Of a DNA stretch of 55,462 nucleotides, positions 8,357 through 44,629 are shown piece after piece (position 1 is the first letter of the stretch; each line of letters opens with the position of its first letter). This DNA comes from a virus (taxonomy: Duplodnaviria > Caudoviricetes). Made by a program: the position numbers and the translations under genes. A model generated the notes under the pieces. The model was given only the letters and a program-made list of their open reading frames with translations, ran no database searches and was not told where the DNA came from. The DNA is taken from positions 1 through 55,462 of IMG/VR virus record IMGVR_UViG_3300028388_004387. One strand, 5' to 3'.

Positions 8357-8369
8357 TATTTTTGCCTAT

Positions 8370-9769: not shown

Positions 9770-9786
9770 ATATGCAGTGATATAGG

Positions 9787-9794: not shown

Positions 9795-9813
9795 TTAATA
9801 CTAAAGCCGCAGC

Positions 9814-13598: not shown

Positions 13599-13605
13599 CG
13601 AAAAA

Positions 13606-14939: not shown

Positions 14940-14940
14940 T

Positions 14941-21924: not shown

Positions 21925-21934
21925 AACGATTGAA

Positions 21935-22647: not shown

Positions 22648-22882
22648 AAAAGCAATCGCTAAGTTTCTAAGCGCAGTAACACCCGAGAGATATATGCCAG
22701 AGGACGTGACAGAAGCGCATCTCGCGTTTTTTAGCGCATATCGCCTAAAAGAGCTGGTGAAGCCTCTTGTCGTGCGAGACAAGCGAAAAAAACCAACTGC
22801 CACTGAAGGGCAGCTTGCAAACAAGTACGGCATAAAGCCAACACAGGTCCAGTACATGTTCCGTCAGTGTAAGCGCAGCTAA
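22613..22882 (+). CDS. Small HTH protein (Mor-like late regulator candidate)
   Basis: TEGQLANKYGIKPTQVQYMF helix-turn-helix directly upstream of the head operon. Confidence 0.55.
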   Translation: MEYSKEELSKRKKAIAKFLSAVTPERYMPEDVTEAHLAFFSAYRLKELVKPLVVRDKRKKPTATEGQLANKYGIKPTQVQYMFRQCKRS

Positions 22883-22988
22883 AGAAGTTCCGTAATTTTT
22901 ATTCGCTACTAAGGAAATCGCTTGCCTGTATAAATTCCTTTCCTTTACTTCGTTGAGACGGATTTAGTTACCCGAAACAAAAAGCAGT

Positions 22989-24065
22989 ATGAGTCAAACC
23001 TTAGAGATACAAATTTTTGAAGAGATAGGTGGCTGGGGCTTCGGCATGCGCGACTTAGTTGAGCAGCTAAGAGGCTTCACCGGAACCAACATCCGCGTCC
23101 CTATTAACTCCTATGGAGGAGTTGTTACAGAGGGCATTTCAATTTACAACGTACTGAAAGGGAGGAAGGAGCATGTAGAGGCTCATATTGTAGGCTATGC
23201 AATGAGCATGGGTACAGTAATTGCCATGGCAGCGGATACTGTAACGATGCCCGAAAACGGCTACTTTATGATACATGAGCCGTGGGGCGTTGAAGTAGGC
23301 GACGCAGAGGAGATGGAAAAGATGAGCTCGCTGCTTGAGAAAATGGCGGAAATGCTTGCCAAAATATACAGCGAGAAGACAGGGCTCACTGTTAATCGCG
23401 TGAGGAAAATGATGAAAGAGGAGACGTGGCTTACTGCAAAAGAAGCGAAAGCGCTTGGCTTTGTAGACAAGCTCACTAAGGGTGCAGAAATTACTGCTGC
23501 ATACCATGTACAAAATCAGGAAATCCTGGCAGCTTGCAACAAGTTGCCTAAACCTATTTATAATTCACTTAAATCCACGGAAATGGAAAATACGTTTTTG
23601 AACAAAATCGGAAAGATTCTGGGTTTGGTAGGTGAAGGCACGGAGCCAATCACTGAGGACCAAGCAGAAGCAAAGCTCCAGGAGTTAGTTGAGCAAGCGC
23701 AAGCAAGCACGCAAAACACCGAGGAGCTGAGCAAGTTCCAGAACAATGTCAAAGACCTGTTCGGTAAAATGAACGAGGAGTTTGGCACCAAGCTCAAAGC
23801 TGTCCAAGACGAGTTAAGCGAAGTGAAAGCTGCCGCTGACAAATTCAAGGAAAGCAACGACGAGCTGACCACCAACTACAATGCGCTCCAGGAGGAGCTC
23901 AAGGAGTTGAAAGGCCAAGCCAGCGGAGGGCAAACCAAAGGCGACGGTGCTCCGCCGGCCCGGAAAACAGGTGCCGCTGCTGAAGGCGGTGCGACAGTCA
24001 TTGCTGCAAGCATGATTGACGAAATGCTCGGGAGCGATGTAAAAATCGTAAGGCCTGGAGCTTAA
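22989..24065 (+). CDS. ClpP-type prohead protease with C-terminal coiled-coil scaffold
   Basis: INSYGG.V.EG, G.AMSMGTVIAMA, FMIHEPW, ETWLTAKEAKALGFVD; coiled-coil C-terminal half. Confidence 0.92.
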   Translation: MSQTLEIQIFEEIGGWGFGMRDLVEQLRGFTGTNIRVPINSYGGVVTEGISIYNVLKGRKEHVEAHIVGYAMSMGTVIAMAADTVTMPENGYFMIHEPWGVEVGDAEEMEKMSSLLEKMAEMLAKIYSEKTGLTVNRVRKMMKEETWLTAKEAKALGFVDKLTKGAEITAAYHVQNQEILAACNKLPKPIYNSLKSTEMENTFLNKIGKILGLVGEGTEPITEDQAEAKLQELVEQAQASTQNTEELSKFQNNVKDLFGKMNEEFGTKLKAVQDELSEVKAAADKFKESNDELTTNYNALQEELKELKGQASGGQTKGDGAPPARKTGAAAEGGATVIAASMIDEMLGSDVKIVRPGA

Positions 24066-24105
24066 TTTGGAACCATAGTACATAACCTACTCAATCTAAA
24101 GAAAG

Positions 24106-25302
24106 ATGATTCAATTAACAGGAGACTTTGGTAGCATGGTTTACTCCGGCAACCAAAGCGGAAGATACCTGGATATTCCTACTGAAGTAGCAATGAAGCT
24201 ATTCTCAAAGTTGGCTATCCAGAAGCCCAATATTGTGCTGAATGCTTTAGGCATGTACACTCTCGCGCCAGTAGGCCGCGACGGTAAAGCACGTTTCGCG
24301 AACCTGAGTACGCCAAGGCACCTCTTGCAAAAGAGAAACAACGGCTGCGCATGGAATGCCAAAGGCCGCACTATTATGGAAACGGATTCCATTGATACGC
24401 ATGCGGTAGAGTACAACGGAGAGCAGTGCCCAGACCACTTGTGGGAGGGTTGCTTGGAGTTGCTCGCAGGAGCTGGCAATGACGTCAAAGACGTATTTGC
24501 TACGCCCGAAAGCGCTGCTATTATGCAGCAAGTAATTGAAAGGACCTACTTGGGTCTTGGAAATTCCTTCTACGACCTAATCAACTACGGGCAGCACCCG
24601 CTCATCACGCAATCCGACACCAACGGGTGGTACAATGAGCAGGAGGATGCTTGGGATGATTTTGTTGACCAGCAGTCTATCCTGGGAGGGCACATTACGC
24701 AAATTGATGCGCTGAAGTCCTCAGGCTACGACAATTTCCAGGTCGTAATCAACGAGGGTGACACGGACGGCAATAGCAAGTTCACGGCCAACGCCACAGA
24801 CTTGTTTGACGAGGTGATTGCTCGCGGAGGAACGAAGTTGAGGATTATGGTTAAGCAAATGCAAGCAACTGGAGGAAACGACAGACCGCTTCTGCTTGTT
24901 TCTCCAAGCATCTACAACAAGTACCGGGATGAGCTCATCAACGACTACAACACCCTGCCAGAAGCGTACACGTTGCAGCTTACAGCAAGCGACGGTCGTT
25001 TCACTGCGCCAGGCGTGCTGATGTACGACGGGTTTTGGGTCGTAAGGATGGATGAGTGGGACCTGTTCGACGAAATCACGGGAACCAAAACCTTCCGATG
25101 CTTGCTTACCGTCCCGGGCAACTTTGCAGTCGCCTACGACGTCCCAAGCTTGAATCAGTTCACCGGGATGAATATGCGCATTGTGCAGAAGCTTGACCCG
25201 CCTTACAACGGGAAGGTTTACATGCACACCAATTTCAAAGTTGGTGCGGGTATCATCGATACTGAACTGATGACAATGGCAGCCTTGACCCTTACTCCTT
25301 AA
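24106..25302 (+). CDS. Major capsid protein
   Basis: 398 aa immediately after the protease/scaffold and followed by a terminator-like hairpin; C-terminal LMYDGFWV and strand pattern consistent with the HK97 fold. Confidence 0.78.
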   Translation: MIQLTGDFGSMVYSGNQSGRYLDIPTEVAMKLFSKLAIQKPNIVLNALGMYTLAPVGRDGKARFANLSTPRHLLQKRNNGCAWNAKGRTIMETDSIDTHAVEYNGEQCPDHLWEGCLELLAGAGNDVKDVFATPESAAIMQQVIERTYLGLGNSFYDLINYGQHPLITQSDTNGWYNEQEDAWDDFVDQQSILGGHITQIDALKSSGYDNFQVVINEGDTDGNSKFTANATDLFDEVIARGGTKLRIMVKQMQATGGNDRPLLLVSPSIYNKYRDELINDYNTLPEAYTLQLTASDGRFTAPGVLMYDGFWVVRMDEWDLFDEITGTKTFRCLLTVPGNFAVAYDVPSLNQFTGMNMRIVQKLDPPYNGKVYMHTNFKVGAGIIDTELMTMAALTLTP

Positions 25303-25304
25303 CT

Positions 25305-25326
25305 GGAGGGGGTCAACTCCCTTTTT
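25305..25326 (+). terminator. Probable (leaky) terminator after the capsid gene
   Basis: G-rich arm, TCAA loop, CTCCC arm and T-run. Confidence 0.5.
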
Positions 25327-25353
25327 CTTAACACCAAATAAACAAAGAACAAA

Positions 25354-26019
25354 ATGAAAATCTTTAGTTTAGTATTGGCTCTAATCACCCTTCTGGGGGC
25401 TATCATATTTCCACAATTCGCTGTTGAGCTTCTGGGTGCGTTTGCAGTGCTTGGAGTGCAGGGTGCAATGTGTACCATAATCGCACTTGACGAGCAAGCA
25501 GATTGCCCAGAGGCCCAAGGCGGTATCTACCAAAGCTACTTGACGGAGTGCAGTAACATCACTCTTTCGGGTACTGCTAAAGACGTAGACGACCAAATCA
25601 CAACGCTGGTCATGACGGGTCTGGGCCTTTGGGTAAAGTGGGTTTATGATGATGACGATACAGCCTTTTACAATGAAACCGGAGAGCGGCAGGGTAACTT
25701 GCATGTGTTCAACCAGCAGGCCTTCCTAAAGTTTGGGGGACTAACCAACACCAAGAGGAAAGTTGCTAACGGTATCAAAGACTGCTGCTGCATTGTCGCA
25801 ATCCACTTCCTAAACAACGGTACGCAAGTTGTGCAAGGGATAGAGGAGGATTCTTCCGGCAACTGGAGATATACCTCCAGGAGTAGAGCGAAAGCCACTG
25901 TCAGCTTGCTATCCGGTACCGGAGCGGAAGAGGACAGAGCAGAAATTTCAATCGACTCAATTAGCCGCGCTGGGTCCTATGTCACGACACTGGATGCAGC
26001 AGCTATTGAAGCACTCTAA
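25354..26019 (+). CDS. Probable major tail (tube) protein with a 38-aa hydrophobic N-terminal leader
   Basis: Core starts MCTIIAL...DC...GGI and ends G.SGTG.EE, resembling Bacteroidota siphophage tail tubes; leader MKIFSLVLALITLLGAIIFPQFAVELLGAFAVLGVQGA. Confidence 0.65.
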   Translation: MKIFSLVLALITLLGAIIFPQFAVELLGAFAVLGVQGAMCTIIALDEQADCPEAQGGIYQSYLTECSNITLSGTAKDVDDQITTLVMTGLGLWVKWVYDDDDTAFYNETGERQGNLHVFNQQAFLKFGGLTNTKRKVANGIKDCCCIVAIHFLNNGTQVVQGIEEDSSGNWRYTSRSRAKATVSLLSGTGAEEDRAEISIDSISRAGSYVTTLDAAAIEAL

Positions 26020-26031
26020 AACCCACGACCT

Positions 26032-26319
26032 ATGTCACTGAAAAAGTATAACTTACACCCGCGTCTTAGGAAGTCTAACCAGACAATGATTATGCCAGTG
26101 CCCGTTGTAGTAGACGGCATTGAAACGTATGCTCCTCGCATTATCCGCGGAGAGCAGAACGTAATCAAGTCAAAGGTGCCGGCTACCAAAGACCAGCCAG
26201 AGTTTGAAAAAGTAGCAACCCGAATCACTGACGAGGAGGTTGATTACTTGTTCAAAACTTATCCCGACAAAGGATACGACCAGCTTTTTGTAAAAGTTGC
26301 TCCTCCTGCGAAAGGATAA
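26032..26319 (+). CDS. Hypothetical protein (structural operon)
   Basis: 95-aa ORF. Confidence 0.7.
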   Translation: MSLKKYNLHPRLRKSNQTMIMPVPVVVDGIETYAPRIIRGEQNVIKSKVPATKDQPEFEKVATRITDEEVDYLFKTYPDKGYDQLFVKVAPPAKG

Positions 26320-26354
26320 TTGCAGTACGATAAAATCTCAACAGGTAAGAGGGT

Positions 26355-27674
26355 ATGTCAAGTTGGAATCCAAAAAAGCAATCACGTTCAGCTCCTAAAG
26401 ACAGGAGTATTGTCAAGTGGATGGACTTGGGCAGCCCCTTACCTGCTGAAATTACAGACCCGGAAGTAATACAGAAGTGGTTCAGCAACTTTCCGTTCGT
26501 GCCTTATGCTACATATTCGCACGCCACAGGACACGCGCTGCTGCACTTAATCGACGACTTGAGTGAGCTTAGCGTTACACAAAGCGCATGCCGGAACAGT
26601 ATTTGCTCGCATGTCCTTGGAGGGAAAGTGAAGCTGATAAATGCTTCAAATGAAACGTTCTTTGAGGAGGCGGCACAAGAGGCGGCAGTAGAGGCGAGCG
26701 TGCGAGAGAGCTTAATTCTCGCGCTTACGCAGCAAGTATCATACGGCAAACACAAGAACCTGCGCGGCTTTTACAAAGCTGCATTTGAAAACATGCACCG
26801 AAATGGTAATTGCTGGGTAGAGGTTGTTCAGTATTATGTAGCAGGTGTCCCTTACGTTGATTTGCATGTACACCCAATGTCAAACGTGCTGTACTATGCA
26901 ACAAGCAAAGGGGAAGATAAATACTGCGCAGTAAGCAAGACTTGGTTCTGGGAAGACATCCAGAAAAAGAAATACGACACGCTGCCTGTCTACCCTCTAT
27001 GGGCAGAGCAAAACGGAATAAGAAGGACTATGCTGCACTTCAAGCATGGGGACCTCGATTGGTACGGCAGGCCGCTGTCTTTACCAAGCTTGATTTACCA
27101 ATACCGGGAGTGGCAAGATAGCACATACTTAAGCAAGCAAGCGAACGCAAATTTTGTAGGGCAGGTATTCATGGAGCTGGAGCAAGGCGACCCAGAAACT
27201 GCCAACTTTATCGACGACGAGGCAGCCCAGGAAGCTGGGTTCCAAAGTACGCGCGATAGACTTGAACAAACGTACACAATGAAAGGAGAGAATCCTTCGG
27301 CTATGCTCGTGACGGAAAGGCCGTACAATAGCGGAAGAGCTTTCATATACCAATTCAAACCTCACACCAATCAGGATTTCTACACTAAGATTGGGAAGCT
27401 CGCTGAGGATAAAATCATTGTGGCAAATCAATGGAGCCGTAGGCTAAGCGGCTTGGATGTATCTGCCGGCTTAAACACTTCAGCGTACATAGACGAGCTG
27501 AAAATCAAAGGAGCCGGAGTGCTGCAAGACTGGAAGGAAGAAATTGACGGCATTGTGAACAAAGTTGCTCACATTGCAGTTGAACACATCCAACCAGGCG
27601 CCATGGAAGGCGTGCGCTTAAGTGCTTCAAGCCCCTACGAGCAACTGATTCAACAGGAACAATCAAACCAATAG
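26355..27674 (+). CDS. Portal protein
   Basis: 439 aa; GNCWVEV, WYGRP..LP.L, and IIVANQWS..L.G.....GL patterns typical of portals. Confidence 0.78.
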   Translation: MSSWNPKKQSRSAPKDRSIVKWMDLGSPLPAEITDPEVIQKWFSNFPFVPYATYSHATGHALLHLIDDLSELSVTQSACRNSICSHVLGGKVKLINASNETFFEEAAQEAAVEASVRESLILALTQQVSYGKHKNLRGFYKAAFENMHRNGNCWVEVVQYYVAGVPYVDLHVHPMSNVLYYATSKGEDKYCAVSKTWFWEDIQKKKYDTLPVYPLWAEQNGIRRTMLHFKHGDLDWYGRPLSLPSLIYQYREWQDSTYLSKQANANFVGQVFMELEQGDPETANFIDDEAAQEAGFQSTRDRLEQTYTMKGENPSAMLVTERPYNSGRAFIYQFKPHTNQDFYTKIGKLAEDKIIVANQWSRRLSGLDVSAGLNTSAYIDELKIKGAGVLQDWKEEIDGIVNKVAHIAVEHIQPGAMEGVRLSASSPYEQLIQQEQSNQ

Positions 27675-27678
27675 AAAA

Positions 27679-28350
27679 ATGAATTTGATAACGGGCTTCG
27701 AGGTCGTTGCAAATTCCCCAGCCAGCAGACAGTTTCCAGTGGATGATGTGTGCAAGCACATATACCGAATAGAAACCATTCAGCTAAAGCAATGCTTAGG
27801 GGAAGACGCAAGAGCATACCTAATAACAAAATTGACAGCCGTAGCAGGAGAACCAGAGGAGTGGGTAGAGGGAAATACATATGACCTTGACGAGGTAGTG
27901 ATTTACTTCGGCAGGCTGTATAAAAGCTTGGCAGCAGCAAACACAGCGCTGATAAAAGACACGTCTAAGTGGGAGCCGGTTGAAAAGTTCAACAACGCAC
28001 TGCTGAACGAGCTGTGGGTAAACGGTTTGAGGGATTGGATAGCATATCATGTGCTGGCTGCGACAGTGCCCTATGCAACGTACAAGATAGGGTCGGAAGG
28101 GGTTGCAAAAAACCTGGATAGCAGAGCAGGGATTATGTCAGCAGAGAAAGAGGAAGTGTGGGGAGTGCAGCGGCAGCTAAAAAAACAAGCAGAAGAATAT
28201 CAGGAGCTGGCTTTGTGCTACCTAAACGACAGGTACGACGACAGGGACGGGACAGAGGATATTGACTGGGATAAGTTTAGCATATTCAATGAAAGCTGTG
28301 CCAGTGGAAATTGCAGTAACACACCAGGCGGTCGAAGAGTTGCTTGGTAA
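27679..28350 (+). CDS. Head-tail adaptor-like protein with inserted CBM5/12-like (chitin-binding-type) domain
   Basis: After the portal; E...LK.CLG and ...KI...GV helical pattern; insert W..G.TY...EVV.Y.GRLY.S...N........W. Confidence 0.6.
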   Translation: MNLITGFEVVANSPASRQFPVDDVCKHIYRIETIQLKQCLGEDARAYLITKLTAVAGEPEEWVEGNTYDLDEVVIYFGRLYKSLAAANTALIKDTSKWEPVEKFNNALLNELWVNGLRDWIAYHVLAATVPYATYKIGSEGVAKNLDSRAGIMSAEKEEVWGVQRQLKKQAEEYQELALCYLNDRYDDRDGTEDIDWDKFSIFNESCASGNCSNTPGGRRVAW

Positions 28351-28362
28351 AAAACGAAAGCG

Positions 28363-28656
28363 ATGAGTTGGAGCATTGATAGGCTGCTAAAAGCAGCAGC
28401 TGAAAAAACACTTGCGGGAGAAAAAGTGCCGCCCGAGGTGAAGGAGTTTAGATTAGGCATTTGTGAAGCGAACGATTGCAATGGGTATGCAGTAGTAAGA
28501 GGAGAGAAGAGGTGCCTTTATTGTGGGTGCTACTTGGACGTGAAAGCGGGATGTGCTACAAATGTAAACCCAAAGACAATGAAGTGGGAGGTAACACATT
28601 GCCCAAAGGGGCTGTGGGACGACAAAGAGATTTTAGACTTTTATCAATCACCATAA
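28363..28656 (+). CDS. Small Cys-rich zinc-finger-like protein
   Basis: RLGICEANDC ... RCLYCGCYLDVK ... CPKGLW. Confidence 0.7.
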   Translation: MSWSIDRLLKAAAEKTLAGEKVPPEVKEFRLGICEANDCNGYAVVRGEKRCLYCGCYLDVKAGCATNVNPKTMKWEVTHCPKGLWDDKEILDFYQSP

Positions 28657-28666
28657 ATTTCGAACC

Positions 28667-29350
28667 ATGTTCAGAAAATTGTATAACCCGGATGCTCACG
28701 CAGACAACACGCTACAGATTTTGGATTCTGATAGCGGCTGCTGTGGGTCAGACGCTACTGCGTGCGCCTATACGGCTGACGATGTAGATGTCTCTACTGT
28801 GAACGGCATCATCTACATAGACGATGCTGGAGCAGAGCAAACCATTGCGTTTGCCGCTGCCGCAACCAGCTTGCCTGACTTGCGGAGAAAGCTTGCAACG
28901 GCGCTCAAAACTATCGGCTATGTCGAGGATGATGAGCGCAGTGTCCAAGCGCAAGCGAACGGCTCAAACTACGACCTTCAGGTTGTAAGTGAATTGGAGC
29001 TGCACGCTTTCACCACAACCGCTGCCGACGTGGACTTCACTAAGAAGTGTACAATGGTGCCAATTTGTAGCTACAAGGTCCTCTATGCAGGCGGTAGCAG
29101 CATCGACTTGACCGTAGACGGCTCCACTGTGGCGCTGAATACGGCCGCGTACGGAACAGCTGGAGCTACGGCTGCGCTGATTGCTGCGCTGGAAGGCGGA
29201 GGCTTTGCAGCTAAGTTTTGGAAAGTGGTTGAGAACGACACCCTGCAAAAGTGGGAAGTGTACGTGAAGGGCAACCCGAACAGCACCACAGTCGTTTACG
29301 ACGGAACAGCCGTCGAAAGATGCGACTGCTGGCAAGGATGGGAAGCGTAA
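28667..29350 (+). CDS. Putative virion structural/decoration protein
   Basis: 227 aa, beta-rich, A/T/D-rich, with SGCCGS and RCDCW; followed by a terminator. Confidence 0.55.
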   Translation: MFRKLYNPDAHADNTLQILDSDSGCCGSDATACAYTADDVDVSTVNGIIYIDDAGAEQTIAFAAAATSLPDLRRKLATALKTIGYVEDDERSVQAQANGSNYDLQVVSELELHAFTTTAADVDFTKKCTMVPICSYKVLYAGGSSIDLTVDGSTVALNTAAYGTAGATAALIAALEGGGFAAKFWKVVENDTLQKWEVYVKGNPNSTTVVYDGTAVERCDCWQGWEA

Positions 29351-29374: not shown

Positions 29375-29409
29375 GCGAGGAGCTGCATACCGTGGCTCTT
29401 CGCTATTTT
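29375..29409 (+). terminator. Probable intrinsic terminator
   Basis: GCGAGGAGC...GCTCTTCGC hairpin followed by TATTTT. Confidence 0.55.
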
Positions 29410-29422: not shown

Positions 29423-31567
29423 ATGCTCAATTATATCACTCCGGTTTTGATTGCGCTTGCACTGCACTTTAGCGCTGGGACGCCAACCGCGCCCGTCTTT
29501 GAAAGCGCTGACCCTCCAGTGCTTTTTTCCTGCTTAGATTGCGACAAAAGAATAGGACCAGATTGCGGTATTTGCGATAACCTAAACACCGCAATCGTTT
29601 TTAAAGGCATACGCTTCCAAGAGGTGTATGGTACAAGGAAAAAGGATGTCTTAATCAGGTATCCTTTTAGCATTTCATACAGCCTCACAAAGCTGACAGT
29701 CAAAAGCGCTTTTGGCGAGGAGTACAGTTTCAAAGTAACGCAAGCTTCTGGGTACAGCAACGTTCACGATATCATTGCTGCGATGTGTGCTTGTTTTGCT
29801 GTTGATGTGACACCAGGAGACTTTAGCTGCGAAGCTGCGCTGGGCTGTTCTTACATAGCTCCGCAGCGTGCAGGAGATACTTGGTATTGGATACAATATG
29901 ACACAACCAACACGCCTATAGACACAACTTCCGTCAACCCAATTCCGCACGTATTTGTCAGCCCAGAGCTGCACGCAGGAGTAGACACAACAGGGTATAG
30001 GCTTGATTGGATAGACGGTTACGACGGGGTTCAGACTTATTTGCTGCGTATCCCAGACCACGTATATGACGACAGAAGCGTATCGTGGAGCGAGACGGAC
30101 ACTTCTTTCACGATACTTACATGCACCACTCCAAGCCCAGAACGTACGAGAGAATGCGATACAATAACGATATCAAAGTATAGCATAAGCTGCACAGACA
30201 TTTGGGACCACATTACAATCATCCCCGAAGCAAACGGAGATTCAATTTATTACAAAGCATACTGCAACGGAGTCATCCAGGACACCACAGCCGTAGTACC
30301 CAGGAAGGCGCGCGAGTTGCCTAATCCCTGTGAAGCATTTTTGGAGTGCTTTAGCTTTGATACCATATGCGTAACCAACGAGCAAATCATCCTCGATACG
30401 ATGGTAAGCTGCACGCTTGAGGAGCGCTTTGATACAATCATTTCACCGCTCGACACAACCATAGTCTGCGATACCGTTTTAACGCTGTGCGACACCGTGC
30501 CATTTCCTATTGATACGATTATAAATTGCGATGATATAGCGGAGCCTGATAGTTGCGACTTTACAGCTTTTTGGTGCTGCAACACAATAAACCGCTTCCG
30601 CTTTTCAGACGACCAGGGAAGCACCTGGACAGAGCTGGCACCTCCCCTGGGGACAAACGGATGGGCAAACGCTTCGCAGCTTGGGGGCTTGCCGCCAGGT
30701 TACATTGCGTACAGAGACGCAACTCAAGGGCTATGCGAACAGATTGAGGTAATGGCTTTAGCGCTAAGCCCAATGAACAGAATTTACGAGTGCCTTGTTA
30801 CCGAGAACCCTTTTGGAGTAAGTGTAGCAGGCCGCATAAATTGCAATGCAGATTTATGGATTGACGCCCGATATGATGTTACTGCAAACTGCGATGACTG
30901 CTATGCACCCGGAGTGGGAGCTTGGTACGAGTTCATGCGCTTTGATAGCACGCGCCCGTTCTATCGCATAGAAACTATTTGTGACACCACAATCCTGTAC
31001 GATACGCTATTTGTAGGCTGCGACACCACCATTACCTGCGATACAACTATTTCGGGCGGAGACACCACGTTTGTGCCGCTGCCTGATACGCTTATCTGCG
31101 ACACCACAATAGTCAGCGACACGATTACCACTGGAGACGGGTGCTGGATAGTGCTTGTGGATAGCACAGGCATGCCTAAAGACACTATCGCTTGGCTTCC
31201 GAGCGGAGGAGGCGGAGGAGGCTTTACAACTTGTGAGCAAGTACGCGCATGCTTAAGCGTTGACACTGTTTGGCAAGACGGAGCGGAGCTGGTATTTGTA
31301 GAGGCCATACAGGGCGATACCATACGCCTAAACTTAAATACCATGCTTATTTCAGACGCTGCCTGGAGTACAGCCTGGGACGGGGATACAGCAGCAGCTA
31401 CAAAGAACGCAATTTATGACGGTGTGTGGCGCGACGTTTCTCATGGGATTTACAGCAATGACGCAGACGCGGCAGCAAACGGATGCCCTATAAATCAAAA
31501 CTATACTTTGAACAATGTAAATACCTACGGACTGCCTGCGGGTACTATTAAAAGACGAGTAAATTAA
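29423..31567 (+). CDS. Predicted secreted, Cys-rich fibre-like protein with 27 D(S/T)(A/I/L/V/M/T) sequons
   Basis: N-terminal hydrophobic stretch VLIALALHFSA; dense DT(T/I/V/L) motifs; fibre-type motifs WDGDTAAATKNAIYD and C-terminal YSNDADAAANG.P. Confidence 0.8.
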   Translation: MLNYITPVLIALALHFSAGTPTAPVFESADPPVLFSCLDCDKRIGPDCGICDNLNTAIVFKGIRFQEVYGTRKKDVLIRYPFSISYSLTKLTVKSAFGEEYSFKVTQASGYSNVHDIIAAMCACFAVDVTPGDFSCEAALGCSYIAPQRAGDTWYWIQYDTTNTPIDTTSVNPIPHVFVSPELHAGVDTTGYRLDWIDGYDGVQTYLLRIPDHVYDDRSVSWSETDTSFTILTCTTPSPERTRECDTITISKYSISCTDIWDHITIIPEANGDSIYYKAYCNGVIQDTTAVVPRKARELPNPCEAFLECFSFDTICVTNEQIILDTMVSCTLEERFDTIISPLDTTIVCDTVLTLCDTVPFPIDTIINCDDIAEPDSCDFTAFWCCNTINRFRFSDDQGSTWTELAPPLGTNGWANASQLGGLPPGYIAYRDATQGLCEQIEVMALALSPMNRIYECLVTENPFGVSVAGRINCNADLWIDARYDVTANCDDCYAPGVGAWYEFMRFDSTRPFYRIETICDTTILYDTLFVGCDTTITCDTTISGGDTTFVPLPDTLICDTTIVSDTITTGDGCWIVLVDSTGMPKDTIAWLPSGGGGGGFTTCEQVRACLSVDTVWQDGAELVFVEAIQGDTIRLNLNTMLISDAAWSTAWDGDTAAATKNAIYDGVWRDVSHGIYSNDADAAANGCPINQNYTLNNVNTYGLPAGTIKRRVN

Positions 31568-31572
31568 AGAGA

Positions 31573-34500
31573 ATGAAAAATGTAGTGTTTTCGGTTTTCT
31601 TAGCAGTTTTAAGCGCAGCGCTGTTCATCCCGGATAGTGCTGCGCAAACTGTTATTGAAGGAGGCGCTGGCGTTGTGCATGTCAGCAGCGACCCAGACTC
31701 AGATGCAGCTTTGCAAACACAAAGCCCAGACGAAGCTTTGTTGGCTATTGATAACAACGGCGGAAGCTTGTATGTTTATGACAGCTTGGCAGCTATTACG
31801 TTGCGCTGGCTTAAGCTTAACGAAGGAGTAGATTGGATAGGCACTTTCGACGGGCAAGAGGGAAGCTATTACCTTGACTATAACAACCTCACAAACCTCC
31901 CCAGCATTCCAACCGTAGACGGCACAGCCTTTGGCCCTTCATGGGATGCTAACGGCGACGCAGCGACAAAGGATGCTATCTACGATGAATTGAGCAATGT
32001 AGGCCTTGACAATTTTGACACTGATGTCGGCCAGCTGTTCGGAATTGTAAGAGGAATTTACCTTGACGACCCGGACGAATGGATTACTTCAGACGGGACT
32101 ACTGTTACGTTGAACATAGAAGCCACGGGAGGCGGCGACATAAGGATGCTATTTAGCGATGGCGTTTTCACATTAGATGCAACTCCAACAGCTACGATTG
32201 CTCTTACAGCAGGGAGCGATGTATCGCCTACTTTGAACTACATCTACATACCGCAATCCACAAAGGTTTTGACTGTTTCAACAACCGGGTGGCCTTCCAC
32301 TGAATATATCGCAGTTGGAACGGCTCTTGTACAAAGTGCTGCGTCGGTTCAAACGGATGGGGTTTACAAGTTTCATCAGTGGAGCGACCACGCTTATAAA
32401 GCCTCGAATAATACAGGCCATTTAGCTCACTTGAACTATTGGATAAGACAACAAGCGGCAACATGGACCAGCGGAGTTGCTTTGACTCCAACGGCTGGAG
32501 TTGGACAATTAGATATAACCACGACAAGCGGTAATATCTTGCAGCTTCATCCTCATGCCTTCCCTGCTTTCACGACAGTTGGAGCAACGGATGATATCTA
32601 CGTAATAAACGACCCTGATGCAGCCTATACAAAAGTAGGAGGATTAACCCAGGCAGAGGGAGTTGATAAAGACTTGAATGGAACCCTTCTTGGGGACCCC
32701 GCAACAGACTTTTATAACCTGGTATTATGGGGCGTTGTTTCGGAGGATTTGACTGACTGTAAATTGATGTTGAACTTGCCAGATGGAGCCTACGCAAATG
32801 ACAATGACCAACAGGCTACCCTTGACAGGGAAAACACAGCAGCCTACGACATCCCGATGGAATATGTAGGAACAGGGTTCCTTATTGCACGCTTAACCAT
32901 CCAGGAAAATGCTGGGACCTATACAGTTGTCAACAACGAAGATTTGAGAGGCTTATTTCCTTCAACTGCTGCTGGAGACGGTACAGGCTTAGGGCAAGGA
33001 AGTGAGTTCGCCGACAATGCGTTTAGGATACATGACGAGGCTGACATATCCAAGGAGGTAGAATTTCAACTTAACGGAGTGACTACATCCACGCTCAGAA
33101 CATTGACTGTTCCGGATGCAAGCGGTACTATCGCCCTAACGTCCGACGTATTTACTCCAAGCACATTGTTGGCTGACTACGGATTCACAGATAATTCCTC
33201 AAATTGGAATACAGCATTTGGGTGGGGCGACCATGCACTTGCAGGCTACCTGACGGATGCTCCAAGCGACGGTTCAGAGTATGTCAGGCTAAACGGAGCG
33301 TGGGCAGTAGCAAGTGGAGGCGGAGGAGGCGGTCCCACATTTGGAACAGACAACCAAATTCCGTACACCAATGCAGGTGGAACGGATTATGATTATTCAG
33401 CCAATTTCACATATGATGGAGCAGGATTATATGTGGGCGGAACAGATGTGGCACTTGATGCAACGGCCAATATAAAAAGCAGCGACGCCAAAAGCTTGAA
33501 AATAATGAACACGGCAACCTCAGGTTCGAGCGCCGGCGCCGGCATTGTCGCAATGTCAGATGATGGAAGCGCGAATGTTGCTGGTGACCGTCTTGGGTTC
33601 TTTTTGTTTGGGGGAAATAATGGGTTAGCAATAAGAAATGCAGCAGGTATTGTCGGATATTCTCAAAGCACATGGAACGGGAGCAATCAGGAAGCTAAAC
33701 TTGTAATTGAAACAAGTCCACCAAATGTGGGCAATGTGCGCGAAGAAGTAGCGGAATTTGATTACACCGGGCTAACAATGGGAACAGGCAACAAGATTGT
33801 CATTGATGGATTGACATTGGAGGATGGGAGTATTTACACAACAGCCGGCGACCTGTTTATTCAAAGTGCAACGGGGAACATGGAGTTGGGCAATATTAGG
33901 TTTGATTCATATCAAACATTAGGAGCGGCACAGCAAGATTTTGTATTCGATTATGATAATGTCAGCGGCATAGCAGCATTTAGAGAATTTGATGGAGACC
34001 ATGCTGACATCGACTACACACCAACGTTTTATACACCCACAACAGCTCCAGCAGAAGCAGCAGACGCTGACGACCTTGCCGCGCACCTTGCGGGTGTTAA
34101 TGCAGCTATTGGAGGGCTGACACCCGAAAACGATGCTTTTGATGCAACATGGGACGGGGACCTTGATGCAGCAACGAAGAACGTGATTTACGACTATGTA
34201 AGCACGCTGATTGCGGAGCTGAAAGACGACCCAACACCCGAGCTGGCTGCTAATTTGATAATGAACGGAACGGCATTTGTTGACACTGTTACGCTCGGGG
34301 AAAATGCCTCCGCAAGAGACTTGCTTACGCTCGACACTGACCTTACTGATGGCAACTATTACCTAACGGACTGCGACGACGTTTCAAGGAGTACAGGGCA
34401 CCTGGTTTTAGCACTGGAAGCTGGGCTGGCAACGGAGCAAATTCAAGTGGCGATATTGGGTAAGGTTCCCGGTTTTACTGCGTTAAGCCAAAAGCCCTAC

Positions 34501-34647
34501 TATATCAGCGCAACTCCAGGCGCAATTACAGACACTGCACCCAGCACCGAAGGACAGGTTGCTCGCATAGTAGGGCAAGGGACAGACACAAATACAATTT
34601 TTAACTTTCAACCAGCAAGTTCATGGGCTATCGTTCAAACACCTTAG
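31573..34647 (+). CDS. Fibre-like protein (1024 aa) with Sec signal peptide
   Basis: MKNVVFSVFLAVLSAALFIPDSAA|Q; phage-fibre motifs RTLTVPDASGTIALTSD, WNTAFGWGDHA.AGYL, DAPSDG..YVR..GAW; C-terminal DUF2190-like cement domain (YYISATPGAIT.TAP). Confidence 0.85.
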   Translation: MKNVVFSVFLAVLSAALFIPDSAAQTVIEGGAGVVHVSSDPDSDAALQTQSPDEALLAIDNNGGSLYVYDSLAAITLRWLKLNEGVDWIGTFDGQEGSYYLDYNNLTNLPSIPTVDGTAFGPSWDANGDAATKDAIYDELSNVGLDNFDTDVGQLFGIVRGIYLDDPDEWITSDGTTVTLNIEATGGGDIRMLFSDGVFTLDATPTATIALTAGSDVSPTLNYIYIPQSTKVLTVSTTGWPSTEYIAVGTALVQSAASVQTDGVYKFHQWSDHAYKASNNTGHLAHLNYWIRQQAATWTSGVALTPTAGVGQLDITTTSGNILQLHPHAFPAFTTVGATDDIYVINDPDAAYTKVGGLTQAEGVDKDLNGTLLGDPATDFYNLVLWGVVSEDLTDCKLMLNLPDGAYANDNDQQATLDRENTAAYDIPMEYVGTGFLIARLTIQENAGTYTVVNNEDLRGLFPSTAAGDGTGLGQGSEFADNAFRIHDEADISKEVEFQLNGVTTSTLRTLTVPDASGTIALTSDVFTPSTLLADYGFTDNSSNWNTAFGWGDHALAGYLTDAPSDGSEYVRLNGAWAVASGGGGGGPTFGTDNQIPYTNAGGTDYDYSANFTYDGAGLYVGGTDVALDATANIKSSDAKSLKIMNTATSGSSAGAGIVAMSDDGSANVAGDRLGFFLFGGNNGLAIRNAAGIVGYSQSTWNGSNQEAKLVIETSPPNVGNVREEVAEFDYTGLTMGTGNKIVIDGLTLEDGSIYTTAGDLFIQSATGNMELGNIRFDSYQTLGAAQQDFVFDYDNVSGIAAFREFDGDHADIDYTPTFYTPTTAPAEAADADDLAAHLAGVNAAIGGLTPENDAFDATWDGDLDAATKNVIYDYVSTLIAELKDDPTPELAANLIMNGTAFVDTVTLGENASARDLLTLDTDLTDGNYYLTDCDDVSRSTGHLVLALEAGLATEQIQVAILGKVPGFTALSQKPYYISATPGAITDTAPSTEGQVARIVGQGTDTNTIFNFQPASSWAIVQTP

Positions 34648-36125
34648 CGTTACTTTTTGCGCTGTGCTTAGTCGCACTGCAAGGAGCAAGCCAGGCGCAT
34701 ATGATAATCAGAGGTAACAGCACCTTGACGGATTCAATACCGGATAGCGGCGACACGCTCAACCTTAAATGGCCGGATGCTGACACTTTGGTTGGTACTG
34801 CTATTCGTTACATAGCAGCAGATGGCTCGTTTGTTTTTGATAGCGCAGGGCGATACCATGTGCAGTACACTGAAAAGCTAACAACATCCTCTACAAATAC
34901 CGCCTACCCTGTTGAACCTAAAATTGGAATTTGGCATTCAGGCCACCAATATTTTTATGGCAGAAAAACACATTGGATAAGCAAGCAGACAAGCAGCAAT
35001 TCAGCTCAAATAACCAACGCAGCGTTGATTGATGCAGCAATAGGCGATACGGTTAGGATTATAGTCGAACGAGTAGATGCAGTTGTTCAGAACGGGGAAA
35101 AGCCTGTGCGCGCAGCAGAAGAAAGCAGCGTTGTCATTTTCAAATTTCCTAACCATTGGGAATGGGCAAGCTATTTCAAAACATCAGCCCAAGCAATAGG
35201 CACCGGAATCAATGCAATCAACTACATAACCCTTGATTCAACCGCACAGGAAGGTACGCCATTCACTTTAGAGGCAAACGGATATGATGTGACAAGCGGA
35301 ACAGCTAATCATATTCTTGCTTACTTTAGTATGAGCGCAAACGGAACCGGAGCAACTGCGGACTATAACATTCAAACCCGGAACAGATTCGCAGGTAACA
35401 CCAATACATACAGGCCGTGGCTGGACAACAAATATTCAAGTTCGTCAGTGCAAAAATTATCCTTTGGGGCGTCGGGTATTTGGCCGGCATCAGTTAGTGA
35501 AACATTTGCAATGCAAACGGTAAACAGGAATGCGACGTATGGCTCAACAAATATCAATACATACGAACTACAAATGATTGAATTACCGTCTACTTCAGAA
35601 GTATTTCATGTGCGTGGCGGTAGCAACCCACAAAACGGATTGGACCAAGACTTCCTTTGGACACAAGTTTTTGAAATAGATGCGCTAACATACGACCAAC
35701 CAAACGACACATTGATAACCATTGAAAAGGCGGGGACCTATTTGTTTTTTGGTGGTTCACAGATTGGCGGAAGCGGAGGTGCTGCATATACTATACCGCG
35801 ACACCAAATAACTATTGACAATACAGTAGATACACGCTTTGGCAGCTCGGACTTCATTAGGGGTGGCTCAACGCTTGACCACATGACGACACAGTTCTCG
35901 GCGATTGTGCCGGGCATAACAGTAGGCACGGAATTAAGGTACCAAGCCAACCGGCTGGGTGCGTCGGGCGGCGGCAATTCAAACGGTGATGTTTTTCAAG
36001 GTATCAACCTAACCACCATACTTGGCAGCCCAGCAGCGCCTTCAAGCGCCTTAGGTATAAACGGAGTAGACGCTTCCACAGTAAACGGCGTCAATTATAG
36101 TTCATTTATAGGTATATCAAAGTAA
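34623..36125 (+). CDS. Predicted secreted beta-sandwich (C1q/TNF-like repeat) protein, receptor-binding candidate
   Basis: Signal-like LALLFALCLVALQGA|SQ; repeated F.F..AG.Y.V / I.I.KAGTYLF strands; C-terminal INGV....VNGV motif. Confidence 0.7.
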   Translation: MGYRSNTLALLFALCLVALQGASQAHMIIRGNSTLTDSIPDSGDTLNLKWPDADTLVGTAIRYIAADGSFVFDSAGRYHVQYTEKLTTSSTNTAYPVEPKIGIWHSGHQYFYGRKTHWISKQTSSNSAQITNAALIDAAIGDTVRIIVERVDAVVQNGEKPVRAAEESSVVIFKFPNHWEWASYFKTSAQAIGTGINAINYITLDSTAQEGTPFTLEANGYDVTSGTANHILAYFSMSANGTGATADYNIQTRNRFAGNTNTYRPWLDNKYSSSSVQKLSFGASGIWPASVSETFAMQTVNRNATYGSTNINTYELQMIELPSTSEVFHVRGGSNPQNGLDQDFLWTQVFEIDALTYDQPNDTLITIEKAGTYLFFGGSQIGGSGGAAYTIPRHQITIDNTVDTRFGSSDFIRGGSTLDHMTTQFSAIVPGITVGTELRYQANRLGASGGGNSNGDVFQGINLTTILGSPAAPSSALGINGVDASTVNGVNYSSFIGISK

Positions 36126-36130
36126 AAGAT

Positions 36131-36505
36131 ATGAAACACTTGTTGCTCTTTTTTATGCTTGCTTGTGCAGTAGCTTGCAAGCCAGCAAGCGAATCGCTCC
36201 AGCTCGATACAGTGCAGCCAGCCTTGCAAAGCGCACCTGCTTACAGTATTGGGCAGCTTGTAGAGATGAGGACGTACAGCGAGGCAAGAGGGCAAAAGGT
36301 TGCAGACGCAGACGGTAATGTAAGCTTTGGCGGGCTGGTTTTCAACATAGATATGATTCAGTATGCAGGCGATACAATGCGCGTGTCAAACGTCATTACA
36401 GAAATGCCGGGCCTAGACCCTTTGCTTTTGCCTTTGTACGAAATGGAAACGGATAACCAGGAGTGGCTTTGGCCTGAGGTTTTTATCAAAAAGAAAGCCA
36501 GGTAA
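36131..36505 (+). CDS. Predicted lipoprotein
   Basis: MKHLLLFFMLACAVA|C lipobox-type signal peptide. Confidence 0.7.
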   Translation: MKHLLLFFMLACAVACKPASESLQLDTVQPALQSAPAYSIGQLVEMRTYSEARGQKVADADGNVSFGGLVFNIDMIQYAGDTMRVSNVITEMPGLDPLLLPLYEMETDNQEWLWPEVFIKKKAR

Positions 36506-36566
36506 ATTTATTAGGGAAGCAGCAGAATTGCTTTTCCGTAAAAGCGGTTTTTAATTAAATTGCAGC

Positions 36567-36836
36567 ATGGACATAATGCAGCTGATTAAACTGGTGAATG
36601 ATTACGGCACACTGCCCGTCTTGGTGTTTGTGTGCTATATTTGTTATAAGATGTTCGTCAGCGAAAGAGCAAAAGCAGACAAGTGCGCAGAAAGAAGATT
36701 TGAGGACATCAAAGAACACACGGACGACACTAAGGCTTTACTGCAAACAACTCTTAAAGCTATCGGCGAAATGCAGCAAGCAAGCAAGCAGGTAGCTGAA
36801 GCGTGCAAAGAGATTAAAGACATTCTGACAAAATGA
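36567..36836 (+). CDS. Single-TM plus coiled-coil protein (holin-like candidate)
   Basis: YGTLPVLVFVCYICY TM segment followed by a charged helix. Confidence 0.55.
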   Translation: MDIMQLIKLVNDYGTLPVLVFVCYICYKMFVSERAKADKCAERRFEDIKEHTDDTKALLQTTLKAIGEMQQASKQVAEACKEIKDILTK

Positions 36837-37201
36837 TTAGAGCGATTTTAAGTCACTTACGGAACGACTATGCTACAGAAATCACGTGGGAAGAAATGCT
36901 AAGCATTAGCAGAACAGAATGGACACAGGTAAGTGAAGGATGCAAGGGCATACGAGTAAGAATGCCCGCTCCAAAAATTATGAGCTTTATCATTAAAATG
37001 GAACCGGGCTCGCATATACCCAATCATTGGCACGAAAAAGTGAAAGAATATTTTACGCTGCTGGAAGGAGATTGCTTTAGCAATATTTACCGGGACATGG
37101 AGACAGGTACTGCATACAAAGTGCATCCAGGTGTAGAGCATAACTTTAGCACAGAAAACGGGTGCTTGCTGCAAATGACTGCGGTACGGGTAGGGAAATA
37201 G
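36833..37201 (+). CDS. Cupin-domain protein
   Basis: PGSHIPNHWH...EYFTLLEG and VHPGVEHNF cupin metal-binding motifs. Confidence 0.8.
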   Translation: MIRAILSHLRNDYATEITWEEMLSISRTEWTQVSEGCKGIRVRMPAPKIMSFIIKMEPGSHIPNHWHEKVKEYFTLLEGDCFSNIYRDMETGTAYKVHPGVEHNFSTENGCLLQMTAVRVGK

Positions 37202-37257
37202 TTGTAGAACACCATGTAAGCCGCTATATTTAACGTCAATCAAAATCATAAAGCTTT

Positions 37258-37743
37258 ATGGAAACCCTAATGAAAATTATCGTACGAACGTTTTTCATGT
37301 TCTACGGAGACAAGCTGAAAGGCGACCGTACTGCGCTTGTAGGAGTGCTGACGGGTATTTTGGCGCTTTGGACAATGATACAAGGCGAGGGACTTTTTCA
37401 AGCGCTGTGCGACTTGGCTGCAAAGATTCCCTTCTTTAGCAAGTTCTGCGACATTGAGTCCACCGTCTATTACAGCATTATGCTGGCGCTGGTAGCAGGC
37501 GTAACAACTGCGCTGAAGTATCTGGACACAAACGAAATGGGCAAGCAGAGGATGATGTCAAGCGGATACACAGAGGGCAATTTTGCTCGGCTCGAAATTT
37601 ATGCCATTGCAGCAGCGCTTATTGTAGTGGCAGCAGTAGTAGTAGGTATATGGAAGATGGGCTTTGCTGCGCTGCTGTTTGGCCTCATTCCTATTTGGCT
37701 ATTGACAAACATATTGGGAGCGATTAAAGCCGCTACCAAGTAA
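37258..37743 (+). CDS. Multi-pass membrane protein (holin candidate)
   Basis: About four hydrophobic segments; LKGDRTALVGVL resembles the LKG.KT start seen in small phage holins. Confidence 0.55.
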   Translation: METLMKIIVRTFFMFYGDKLKGDRTALVGVLTGILALWTMIQGEGLFQALCDLAAKIPFFSKFCDIESTVYYSIMLALVAGVTTALKYLDTNEMGKQRMMSSGYTEGNFARLEIYAIAAALIVVAAVVVGIWKMGFAALLFGLIPIWLLTNILGAIKAATK

Positions 37744-37772
37744 GAAGCTTCATTTCGCATCGTTTGCTTTTA

Positions 37773-37803
37773 GGTGGGTGTCGCATAGGCGCCCACTTTT
37801 TTT
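37773..37803 (+). terminator. Intrinsic terminator
   Basis: GTGGGTGTC-GCATA-GGCGCCCAC followed by a T-run, directly before cassette copy 4. Confidence 0.8.
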
Positions 37804-40567: not shown

Positions 40568-40805
40568 CTTCGAGCTTGACGGAGTTAAGTATGCAGCATT
40601 TCACGGAGAGTGTAGACTGGAGGATAGGGGCGGCAAGTGCTTTCTAATAGTAAAGGGAAGCGTAGGAGAGCTGGTGGTTGCTTTGAGCAATGTTGCAGAC
40701 ATGAAGTTTGGCAGCAATAAAACGTCAAAAGCAAACGTCTTAAACCTGTGCAGCACACAGGACAATCAAAACAATAAACCACAAAAAACCAATGACAACG
40801 ACTGA
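40467..40805 (+). CDS. Hypothetical protein (start uncertain)
   Basis: 112-aa ORF filling the gap before queE. Confidence 0.5.
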   Translation: MAKRMYKYMSSLKRERAELLLSEWKLWTVVLKDSFELDGVKYAAFHGECRLEDRGGKCFLIVKGSVGELVVALSNVADMKFGSNKTSKANVLNLCSTQDNQNNKPQKTNDND

Positions 40806-41595
40806 AATTTTAGGAAAAGAAAAAGCACCTATCAGCGAGTATTTTTACAGCTTGCAAGGCGAGGGGAGGTACACAGGATACCCAGCATTTTTTGTTCGGT
40901 ACCGCGGGTGTAACCTACTGTGCGGAAGGGACATGAAAACAGATAGCGAGCACCCAGACGCTGAATGGGAGTGCGACACCATTGACGTATGGCGCAAGGG
41001 CAAGATGATGACGAACAAGGAGCTGGTAGACAAAATGAACGAGGAATTTCAGTTCATTGACAGGTTGTTTAACCAGGACGCGCACCTTATCCTAACAGGC
41101 GGAGAGCCGCTTTTGCACATGCGCAGGCTGGAGTGTTTCATAGAGTATGTAGACGGCTTATTGGCAGACGAATCGTTCCCACACTTTCACACGCCTTTCG
41201 TGGAAATAGAAACCAACGGCACAATCACTCCAACAGAGTATTTGCTTAGGCGTGTAAACCAGTGGAACGTCAGCGTCAAGCTGCATAACAGCGGCCAGCC
41301 TTTAGATATGCGAGTGATAGACGATGCCTTAGAAACATTTGCACAAGCGTCAAGGGTTGCAGGTTCAGTAGATTTAAAGCCCGTCATAACACATCCAAAC
41401 GACATTTTCCAGGTGCAAGAAATTGTTGAGAAATACGGCTGGAGCGAAAGCAATGTCGTTCTAATGCCAGGAGGCAGCACGCAGCAGCAGCTTGACGAGA
41501 ACAGCAAGTTGGTTGCAGAGCAGTGCAAGGCGTTTGGGTACAGGATGAGCAGCAGATTACAAGTTATAATCTGGAATGAAGTAACCGGAGTTTAA
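40792..41595 (+). CDS. queE: 7-carboxy-7-deazaguanine synthase (radical SAM)
   Basis: FYSLQGEG...G.PAFFVR..GCNL.C...W.CDT, LTGGEPLL, IETNGT, LMP.G, S.RLQV.IW. Confidence 0.93.
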   Translation: MTTTEILGKEKAPISEYFYSLQGEGRYTGYPAFFVRYRGCNLLCGRDMKTDSEHPDAEWECDTIDVWRKGKMMTNKELVDKMNEEFQFIDRLFNQDAHLILTGGEPLLHMRRLECFIEYVDGLLADESFPHFHTPFVEIETNGTITPTEYLLRRVNQWNVSVKLHNSGQPLDMRVIDDALETFAQASRVAGSVDLKPVITHPNDIFQVQEIVEKYGWSESNVVLMPGGSTQQQLDENSKLVAEQCKAFGYRMSSRLQVIIWNEVTGV

Positions 41596-44618: not shown

Positions 44619-44629
44619 AATCAAAGAAC

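Follow-up and report, generated by a model that had tools for sequence, protein, structure and literature searches.

Assembly of tailed phages is taught as a cytoplasmic process, and to our knowledge the only late phage proteins that use the host Sec pathway are lysis and exclusion factors. Here we analysed the IMG/VR virus record IMGVR_UViG_3300028388_004387 (hereafter the window, meaning the whole stretch of 55,462 bases, a complete record with direct terminal repeats). Its + strand carries an operon whose first four genes, at positions 29423 to 36505, begin with predicted export signals, the first of them weak, and encode predicted fibre and adhesin proteins and a lipoprotein. From their sequences, the virion-type proteins of this operon are probably made in the host periplasm.

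T4-type long tail fibres are built from gp34-37, with a separate tip adhesin, gp38, in T2-like phages. The operon resembles them in its consecutive fibre-segment genes and small distal adhesin, and the T4 fibre is assembled separately and attached last. However, the T4 proteins are cytoplasmic and lack signal peptides, no sequence similarity was found, and the adhesin described here is a predicted C1q/TNF-like pseudo-trimer. In T5 (Llp) and similar phages, lipoprotein genes lie beside the gene of the receptor-binding protein, and the small lipoprotein gene at 36131 likewise adjoins the adhesin gene. In T5, however, only the lipoprotein is exported and the receptor-binding protein is cytoplasmic; the 36131 product has no detected homology.

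The coat proteins of Inoviridae, which are part of the virion, also carry Sec-type signals and enter the particle from the membrane or the periplasm. Theirs is a non-lytic filament extrusion, whereas the window encodes a tape measure, a prohead protease and a terminase, so its heads and tails would be cytoplasmic. BclA of the Bacillus exosporium is a glycosylated fibre outside the cytoplasm. The present adhesin resembles BclA/ExsFA in its C1q/TNF-like jelly-roll head (a match to 7r1m and to the BclA C-terminal domain), and the likeness extends to collagen repeats in signal-bearing proteins of a related locus (L209). The BclA/ExsFA heads are trimers of three chains, whereas three domains lie in one chain here. 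Phages of Porphyromonas gingivalis encode signal peptidase I (SPase I) substrates with glutamine at +1, as here, which points to adaptation of Bacteroidota phages to the export and pyroglutamate system of their hosts (Matrishin et al. 2023, PMC10367356). Those five uncharacterised genes belong to temperate phages and were read as outer-membrane modifiers; the available text of that report (PMC10367356) describes no link to fibres or operons. Some of the five may still be fibre-like.

Predicted export signals of the operon

The operon and its boundaries are laid out as follows.

29375..29403 (+): terminator-like hairpin, 12-bp stem with 7 G-C pairs and a T-rich tail; upstream boundary of the unit, after the head-module genes
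29423..31567 (+): 714-amino-acid (aa) orphan protein with a weak N-terminal signal
30359..30520 (+): first dense array of D-(S/T)-(A/I/L/V/M/T) sequons, residues 313-366 of the 714-aa protein, in CDT(T/I/V)-type short repeats
30944..31189 (+): second dense sequon array, residues 508-589 of the 714-aa protein
31573..34647 (+): 1024-aa fibre protein, starting 6 nt past the previous stop
31573..31644 (+): its predicted Sec/SPase I signal, 24 aa, ...PDSAA^QTV, with +1 glutamine
32050..33132 (+): central fibre domain, about residues 160-520
34210..34644 (+): fibre C-terminal domain, about 145 aa
34623..36125 (+): 500-aa protein, probable tip adhesin, with a 25-nt overlap with the fibre gene
34623..34691 (+): its predicted signal, 23 aa, ...LVALQGAS^QAH, directly before the conserved N-terminus of the family
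36131..36505 (+): 124-aa predicted lipoprotein, starting 6 nt past the previous stop
36567..36836 (+): 89-aa protein with a single N-terminal membrane helix and a helical tail; holin or i-spanin candidate
36833..37201 (+): 122-aa cupin (Cupin_2, E 1.7e-6)
37258..37743 (+): 161-aa protein, multi-pass by eye from its hydrophobic stretches; holin candidate and last gene of the unit
37772..37798 (+): terminator-like hairpin with a run of TTTTTTT after its 11-bp stem; closes the unit downstream

Because the genes are tightly packed and bracketed by terminator-like hairpins, positions 29423-37743 are likely one late transcription unit, apart from the upstream head genes. The tight coupling, the bracketing terminators and the lack of any tyrosine integrase (Pfam PF00589) match in the window argue for late lytic expression and not for a lysogenic moron. 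A sigma-70 promoter scan performed at chance level (19 found, 18.6 expected) and was not used. Two-component spanins pair the gene of an outer-membrane lipoprotein with that of a type II inner-membrane protein within a lysis cassette. Here the lipoprotein gene at 36131 precedes the membrane-protein gene at 36567, which is the reverse of the usual spanin order, and the pair showed no homology.

Each open reading frame (ORF) was scored over roughly its first 35 residues for a positively charged n-region, for 8-15 hydrophobic and uncharged residues forming the h-region, and for small residues at both -1 and -3. As a result, 5 of the 67 window ORFs reached a score of at least 3.5, namely 7694, 25354, 31573, 34623 and 36131. 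The fibre N-terminus reads MKNVVFS-VFLAVLSAALFI-PDSAA^Q, and that of the adhesin ends in ...LVAL-QGAS^Q; both scored 4.3 to 4.6 and have the make-up of Sec/SPase I signals. The 36131 product carries MKHLLLFFMLACAVA^C (AVA^C), which matches a PROSITE-style lipobox pattern. The N-terminus at 29423, MLNY-ITPVLIALALHF-SAGT, scored 2.62, low because its n-region has no positive charge. Thus, where the sequence-only reading saw export signals on four adjacent genes, three are strong, and the fourth is as weak as that reading had said.

Of the two other scoring ORFs, 7694 encodes a small membrane protein whose N-terminus resembles a membrane anchor. The other, 25354-26019 (+), lies right after the likely capsid gene and encodes 221 aa without a family match; the hydrophobic stretch of some 38 residues with which it begins (score 4.24) may represent a signal, a membrane anchor or a capsid segment removed by the protease.

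Bacteroidota follow a Q-rule, with glutamine at +1 of the SPase I cleavage site (PMC5837995, PMC10653852). Counting proteins of at least 150 aa, scored without a bonus for glutamine, we found glutamine at +1 in 9 of 31 predicted signals against a background of 3.8% (p 1.6e-6), and several further predicted signals have an alternative cleavage site before a glutamine.

The proteins and their families

The 714-aa protein is a stalk-like protein rich in cysteine and sequons. No homolog was detected for it, and Pfam gave a weak tailspike match (E 0.033); it contains once the motif WDxDxAATKxAIYD (WDGDTAAATKNAIYD) that the 1024-aa protein contains twice. The latter is, judged by its sequence, a modular fibre: an NWNTAFGWGDH-type stretch recurs in 165 viral stretches, and its central domain is found in the tail modules of other loci. 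Fibre motifs had been proposed for both genes; they hold for 31573, and at 29423 they come down to the weak tailspike match and the shared motif.

A capsid-cement domain of the DUF2190 type, proposed for the end of the 1024-aa protein, was not borne out: PF09956 matched neither the C-terminal domains of the window and of two other phages, G001 and L226 (E up to 10) nor a six-frame translation of the window. A weak lead comes from a language model, whose second-ranked cluster for this domain (score 0.91) includes PF09956 in 14% of the member proteins. We found no stand-alone homologs of the domain. Its AlphaFold2 (AF2) model, from a 3-row alignment, was unusable (pLDDT 33), and a complex prediction of three C-terminal domains with the 500-aa protein scored 0.00, which is evidence neither way.

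The 500-aa protein gave a better model (pLDDT 81, pTM 0.84). Its top Foldseek matches in the PDB were trimers engineered as single chains, namely those of APRIL-BAFF, of the C1q head and of adiponectin (E 5e-20 to 3e-17, TMq 0.56-0.61). BFVD holds similar viral proteins, the closest of similar length being a 425-aa 'C1q domain-containing protein' of an uncultured phage (TMq 0.70). These matches suggest that three C1q/TNF-like jelly rolls are joined here in one natural chain, a pseudo-trimer forming a binding head, and the modelled protein is probably the fibre-tip adhesin. The 124-aa lipoprotein has no recognisable family or homology, and no paralogous signal-less copy of any operon protein was found in the window.

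Searched exhaustively with HMMER (E up to 1e-3), the 500-aa protein proved to belong to a family of 43 proteins, itself included. Signals were present in five of these, P0017, P0020, P0022, P0030 and the window protein, and in each the n, h and c segments stand immediately before the conserved 'GDYVVRRN' start. Among the 42 non-self relatives, 26 start without a signal within about 10 residues of that conserved start, 'MAAGDYVVRRNNANTD...', so that the match begins near their residue 6 and at query residue 27. Cleavage would therefore restore the native N-terminus of the family. In a maximum-likelihood tree of 28 members, the signal state changes four times, and well-supported branches force at least three of these changes, which suggests a switch of route and not of function.

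The central fibre domain, about 350 aa, is common to 12 large metagenomic proteins (34-66% identity), of which three (P0005, P0009 and P0010) have a classical signal; a scan with P0005 returned only loci with a common fibre motif. A profile of the domain found 67 IMG/VR loci and 80 JGI metagenome loci, and in the loci inspected the domain lies in tail modules. Among complete ORFs of the family, 5 of 57 viral and 3 of 41 non-duplicate metagenomic members carry a signal at thresholds of 2.8 and 3.5, respectively; L190, signal-like in an ORF that runs off its locus, was left uncounted. The pooled share of 8/98, about 8% of one fibre family, indicates that the window is not a one-off. It is well supported by these alignments that the signal is a lineage-specific add-on to normally cytoplasmic families.

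Signals also cluster around signal-bearing fibres. Neighbours of at least 150 aa within two genes carry signals in 8 of 18 cases beside such fibres against 3 of 164 beside signal-less fibres (Fisher 2.4e-7); a few loci (L181, L209, L283 and L314) drive this contrast, and duplicate signal-less viral loci were kept.

The fibre-tip and adhesin pair also turns up in a phage unrelated to this one, G001, a 35.5-kb IMG/VR record of a temperate-looking siphovirus with canonical gene order, which contains the adhesin relative P0030. There, the tape measure and three tail genes are followed by a 2589-aa fibre with a classical signal (...GGAAA^QVD), whose last ~145 residues are 38% identical to the window fibre C-terminus (E 4e-24). 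After this fibre the order is signal-bearing adhesin, single-pass membrane protein, a cupin-like gene at the same relative position as the window cupin, a protein with both a signal and an anchor, and a small, by eye peptidase-like protein, a possible endolysin. The 112-aa membrane protein is the positional and architectural counterpart of the window 89-aa protein, with no BLASTP similarity; G001 has no lipoprotein gene to go with it. By BLASTP, the two genomes have in common only the large terminase (TerL), the fibre C-terminal domain and the adhesin, which suggests that fibre tip and adhesin form a mobile two-gene module. Both partners carry signals in the window and in G001, whereas in L226 the C-terminal domain sits on a signal-less fibre (E 3e-6) and the next gene is likewise signal-less; the partners thus match in compartment, as would be expected if they had to share one.

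Further loci repeat the pattern. L209 encodes four consecutive signal-bearing proteins of 959, 1037, 624 and 538 aa, in which collagen repeats and a fibre chaperone of the Peptidase_S74 type occur; segments of the 1037-aa one match tail fibres annotated in cultured phages, the sole such cultured match. In L181 and L314, the signal-bearing fibre directly follows the tape-measure and distal-tail genes, with two further signal-bearing genes after it and a lipoprotein later.

A few fibre-family members have other N-termini. A 1335-aa member at 2283-6290 (+) of L269 has a lipoprotein-type signal (...LLLFISGC), which would make it a lipid-anchored fibre. Those at 8588-11950 of L217 and 9530-13219 of L231 (both +) begin with what resemble long uncleaved membrane anchors without a clear cleavage site; the L231 protein also has the N-terminal domain of the mature window fibre (E 5e-9).

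It is conceivable that four hydrophobic N-termini merely came to be adjacent by chance or through annotation, without a common meaning. One of the four signals is weak, the predictor is crude, and 47 of 1291 ORFs (3.6%) in the related loci are signal-like anyway. Nevertheless, permutation gave p=0.014 for a run of at least three among five positives in 67 genes and p=0.0013 for a run of at least four among six. The pattern moreover recurs in independent phages with matched partners, the signal position is conserved relative to the mature N-terminus, and glutamine is enriched at +1. We therefore hold this explanation to be most improbable.

Another possibility is that the N-termini are no cleaved signals at all, being membrane anchors, virion segments that insert into the host membrane, or artefacts of true starts lying downstream, at 34701 or at M9 of 36131. 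Anchors would tether the fibres at the inner membrane, and downstream starts would leave part of the pool cytoplasmic. The missing positive n-region of 29423 and the anchor-like helices of the L217 and L231 fibres fit such a view. So does the internal ATG at 34701 (M27), which sits at the conserved start of the adhesin family and makes the true start ambiguous, as does the public gene call that begins the lipoprotein at M9, with loss of its n-region. Matrishin et al. ascribed signal-like predictions for capsid proteins to cleavage by the prohead protease (PMC10367356). Against it stands the +1 glutamine excess; small residues at -1 and -3 are not independent evidence because our scorer required them. 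By eye, and for Met alone, the 1024-aa protein has no alternative start for about 100 residues past its signal. The closest adhesin relative, P0017, keeps the signal with no internal ATG at the place equivalent to 34701, and in the AF2 model helix 4-19 has low confidence, in contrast to the confident body. Of the downstream starts that had been named as a refutation, those at 34701 and at M9 of 36131 leave the start codons partly ambiguous. Overall, we judge that uncleaved N-termini are an improbable explanation.

Proposed processing by the host and setting of the operon

Bacteroidota have a general O-glycosylation system that modifies D-(S/T)-(A/I/L/V/M/T) on non-cytoplasmic proteins, and engineered motifs of this kind become glycosylated (PMC8550257, PMC12871550). 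A review of this system makes no mention of phages in the part available.

Within the window, the three highest sequon excesses among 67 genes belong to the operon: 29423 (27 sequons, 4.5 expected, z 11), 34623 (7, 2.0 expected, z 3.9) and 36131 (2, 0.3 expected, z 3.5). The z of the remaining genes is never above 2.6. In the related loci, where 311 ORFs of 300 aa or more were counted, z reached 4 only in the 959-aa protein of L209 (31 sequons, 5.7 expected), which has DT/DS repeats like those of 29423 and a strong signal with +1 glutamine. This lends indirect support to export of the weakly signalled 29423 product. Taken together, the lineage-specific signals before conserved N-termini, their operon-wide recurrence, the +1 glutamine and the sequon array lend good support to the proposed export, and with it to part of the earlier interpretation; on these sequence features it is likely that the operon products leave the cytoplasm.

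We also searched the four proteins for a C-terminal sorting domain (Por_Secre_tail or SprB type) of the type IX secretion system (T9SS) and found none (NCBIfam, E up to 0.05; Pfam). Such a domain is detectable by the same method, as it was found in an L226 protein. Without it the proteins would stay periplasmic; routing through the T9SS was therefore rejected, and the earlier alternative that they decorate the surface of the infected cell is unlikely as stated. The L226 protein itself (6872-10126, +; 1084 aa) has a signal (MAFS^QV), CARDB and MAM-like domains and Por_Secre_tail (E 7e-10), and is by these domains a phage-encoded type IX secretion cargo.

The host phylum is probably Bacteroidota, as suggested by the +1 glutamine, the paucity of Shine-Dalgarno motifs, the TerL relative and the T9SS cargo encoded by L226, a phage with the same fibre C-terminus. 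Shine-Dalgarno-like motifs precede 9 of 66 window genes, against 25% in random 17-mers. The sole TerL relative in reference genomes comes from a Bacteroidota metagenome-assembled genome (26% identity), and the fibre profile had partial matches in 2 of 401 sampled Bacteroidota genomes.

The + strand holds nearly all window genes. The main landmarks outside the operon are the following.

9814-13323: tape measure (phrog_28, E 8e-42)
14941-21924 (+): 2327-aa tail protein with PKD, Hoc-like Ig and sub-threshold SprB repeats, directly after the tape measure
22989-24065: prohead protease (phrog_94, E 2e-61)
50789-52258: TerL

The gene order of 9814-29350 is unusual, since the tape measure and tail-tip genes precede the prohead protease and capsid genes. 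No portal was recognised in the window by Pfam or PHROGs, and no relatives of the 439-aa gene at 26355 were found. The 2327-aa protein has 94 cysteines (4.0%) and no signal peptide, and is likely a tail-tip adhesin. At 2564-3157 (+) lies a 197-aa DNA/RNA non-specific endonuclease (Endonuclease_NS, E 9e-14); read from the internal Met13, it begins with a classical signal with +1 glutamine (...LQSIA^QNK) and would then be an exported phage nuclease. Two small ORFs at 7048-7311 and 55020-55307 (+) are paralogous (41% identity over 71 aa). The genes at 40792-41595, 44567-45358 and 45406-45840 (+) have N-termini that by eye resemble motifs we take to be those of QueE, QueC and QueD of 7-deazaguanine synthesis, and on that assumption would suggest DNA modification. 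Endolysin candidates are 47845-48333 (+), with a weak CHAP match (E 0.0015), and 48700-49410 (+), a matrixin-type Peptidase_M10 (E 5.5e-17); neither lies within the fibre unit itself.

Possible fates of the exported proteins

We tentatively favour the view that the exported fibre and adhesin module joins particles when a holin opens the inner membrane. From the signals and their recurrence, the folds and the gene order, we infer the following cleavage, modification and docking steps. The first four products of the unit would leave the cytoplasm through the host Sec pathway. SPase I would cut the fibre and the adhesin before glutamine, which would be cyclised to pyroglutamate as in Bacteroidota, and signal peptidase II would process the 124-aa lipoprotein. 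In the periplasm the proteins would fold, be O-glycosylated at D-(S/T)-x by the host general system and assemble as a fibre-adhesin complex, and heads and tails would be built in the cytoplasm as usual. The two pools would meet only once the holin breaches the inner membrane as infection ends, and the finished fibres would dock as the last assembly step, like free T4 tail fibres. Fibre attachment in T4 is the last and a spontaneous step, and lesions made by the holin would bring periplasmic fibres and cytoplasmic particles together while the outer membrane is still intact.

The competing explanation is that the proteins are exported and never enter virions, with fibre and adhesin genes re-used for a task in the infected cell's periplasm. 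There the proteins might bind or cover the receptor or precursors of it (nascent surface glycans, outer-membrane proteins), which would block superinfecting phages and spare released progeny a loss to the dying cell and debris; the lipoprotein encoded next to them would have the role of T5 Llp. Several features of the window suit this role. A separate signal-less giant tail adhesin candidate is present, the operon is its own terminator-bounded unit beside lysis-type membrane proteins, the lipoprotein gene directly follows the adhesin gene as in the T5 llp/pb5 arrangement, and the C1q/TNF-like fold is a binding fold. The Q-rule signal proteins of P. gingivalis phages were moreover read by their authors as modifiers of the host envelope (PMC10367356).

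On the other side, the signal-bearing fibre holds the only canonical fibre position in G001, L181 and L314, so that an envelope role would leave these phages without a side fibre. As decoys, proteins of 1000 to 2600 aa would be costly, and, since no signal-less paralog exists in the window, there is no pair of virion and decoy proteins; a decoy copy beside a virion copy in one genome was for this reason rejected. With at least three gains or losses involving whole operons, neo-functionalisation would have to be repeated. We regard an envelope role as the leading alternative, though the less likely one. Docking onto virions is preferred because of the canonical fibre position in those three loci, the preserved mature N-terminus, the repeated joint switching of whole operons and the lack of a second, signal-less copy in the window.

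A number of observations weigh against docking or against the data behind it. We know of no tailed phage that assembles virion parts from the periplasm, and the literature covered, which did not extend to subscription journals, describes neither a signal-bearing tail-fibre operon nor periplasmic virion assembly. Head genes lie between the exported operon and the tail module, lysis-like genes adjoin the operon, and the signal-less 2327-aa tail protein could serve as the adhesin. Neither the window nor its families had cultured relatives by blastn or tblastn in 50,697 cultured-phage records. The signal scorer is our own heuristic of n, h and c regions and the -1/-3 rule, not SignalP, and was calibrated on the 67 window ORFs themselves.

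The marks of host processing are also uneven. The 1024-aa fibre is slightly depleted in sequons (4, 7.1 expected), and the DT(T/I/V) arrays may instead be repeats of a structural kind only. In the adhesin family, relatives with and without a signal do not differ in sequons per 100 aa (0.92 vs 0.89), and a general sequon enrichment of exported relatives was accordingly rejected. Cysteine content does not discriminate: the 714-aa protein has 35 cysteines, the 1024-aa and 500-aa proteins have 2 and 1, and the signal-less 2327-aa protein has 94. Disulfide formation, which the sequence-only reading listed among the host's maturation steps for exported proteins, consequently fails as a general reason for export.

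More broadly, it is possible, and we propose it with caution, that some tailed phages, mostly of Bacteroidota, use a two-compartment assembly in which periplasmic fibres with pyroglutamate ends and O-glycans (at up to 27 sites on one protein) dock after holin action. If so, free virions would carry host-made glycans on their receptor-binding apparatus. Recurrent, operon-wide and repeatedly evolved signals on fibre and adhesin genes could mean a new assembly route giving virions with host-type glycans and pyroglutamate ends, which, if true, would bear on the stability, immune recognition, mucus binding and host range of Bacteroidota phages. Alternatively, they could mark large periplasmic proteins of a new class, descended from receptor-binding proteins and directed against superinfection or debris. 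In both cases, fibre genes that carry signal peptides would have to be annotated differently.

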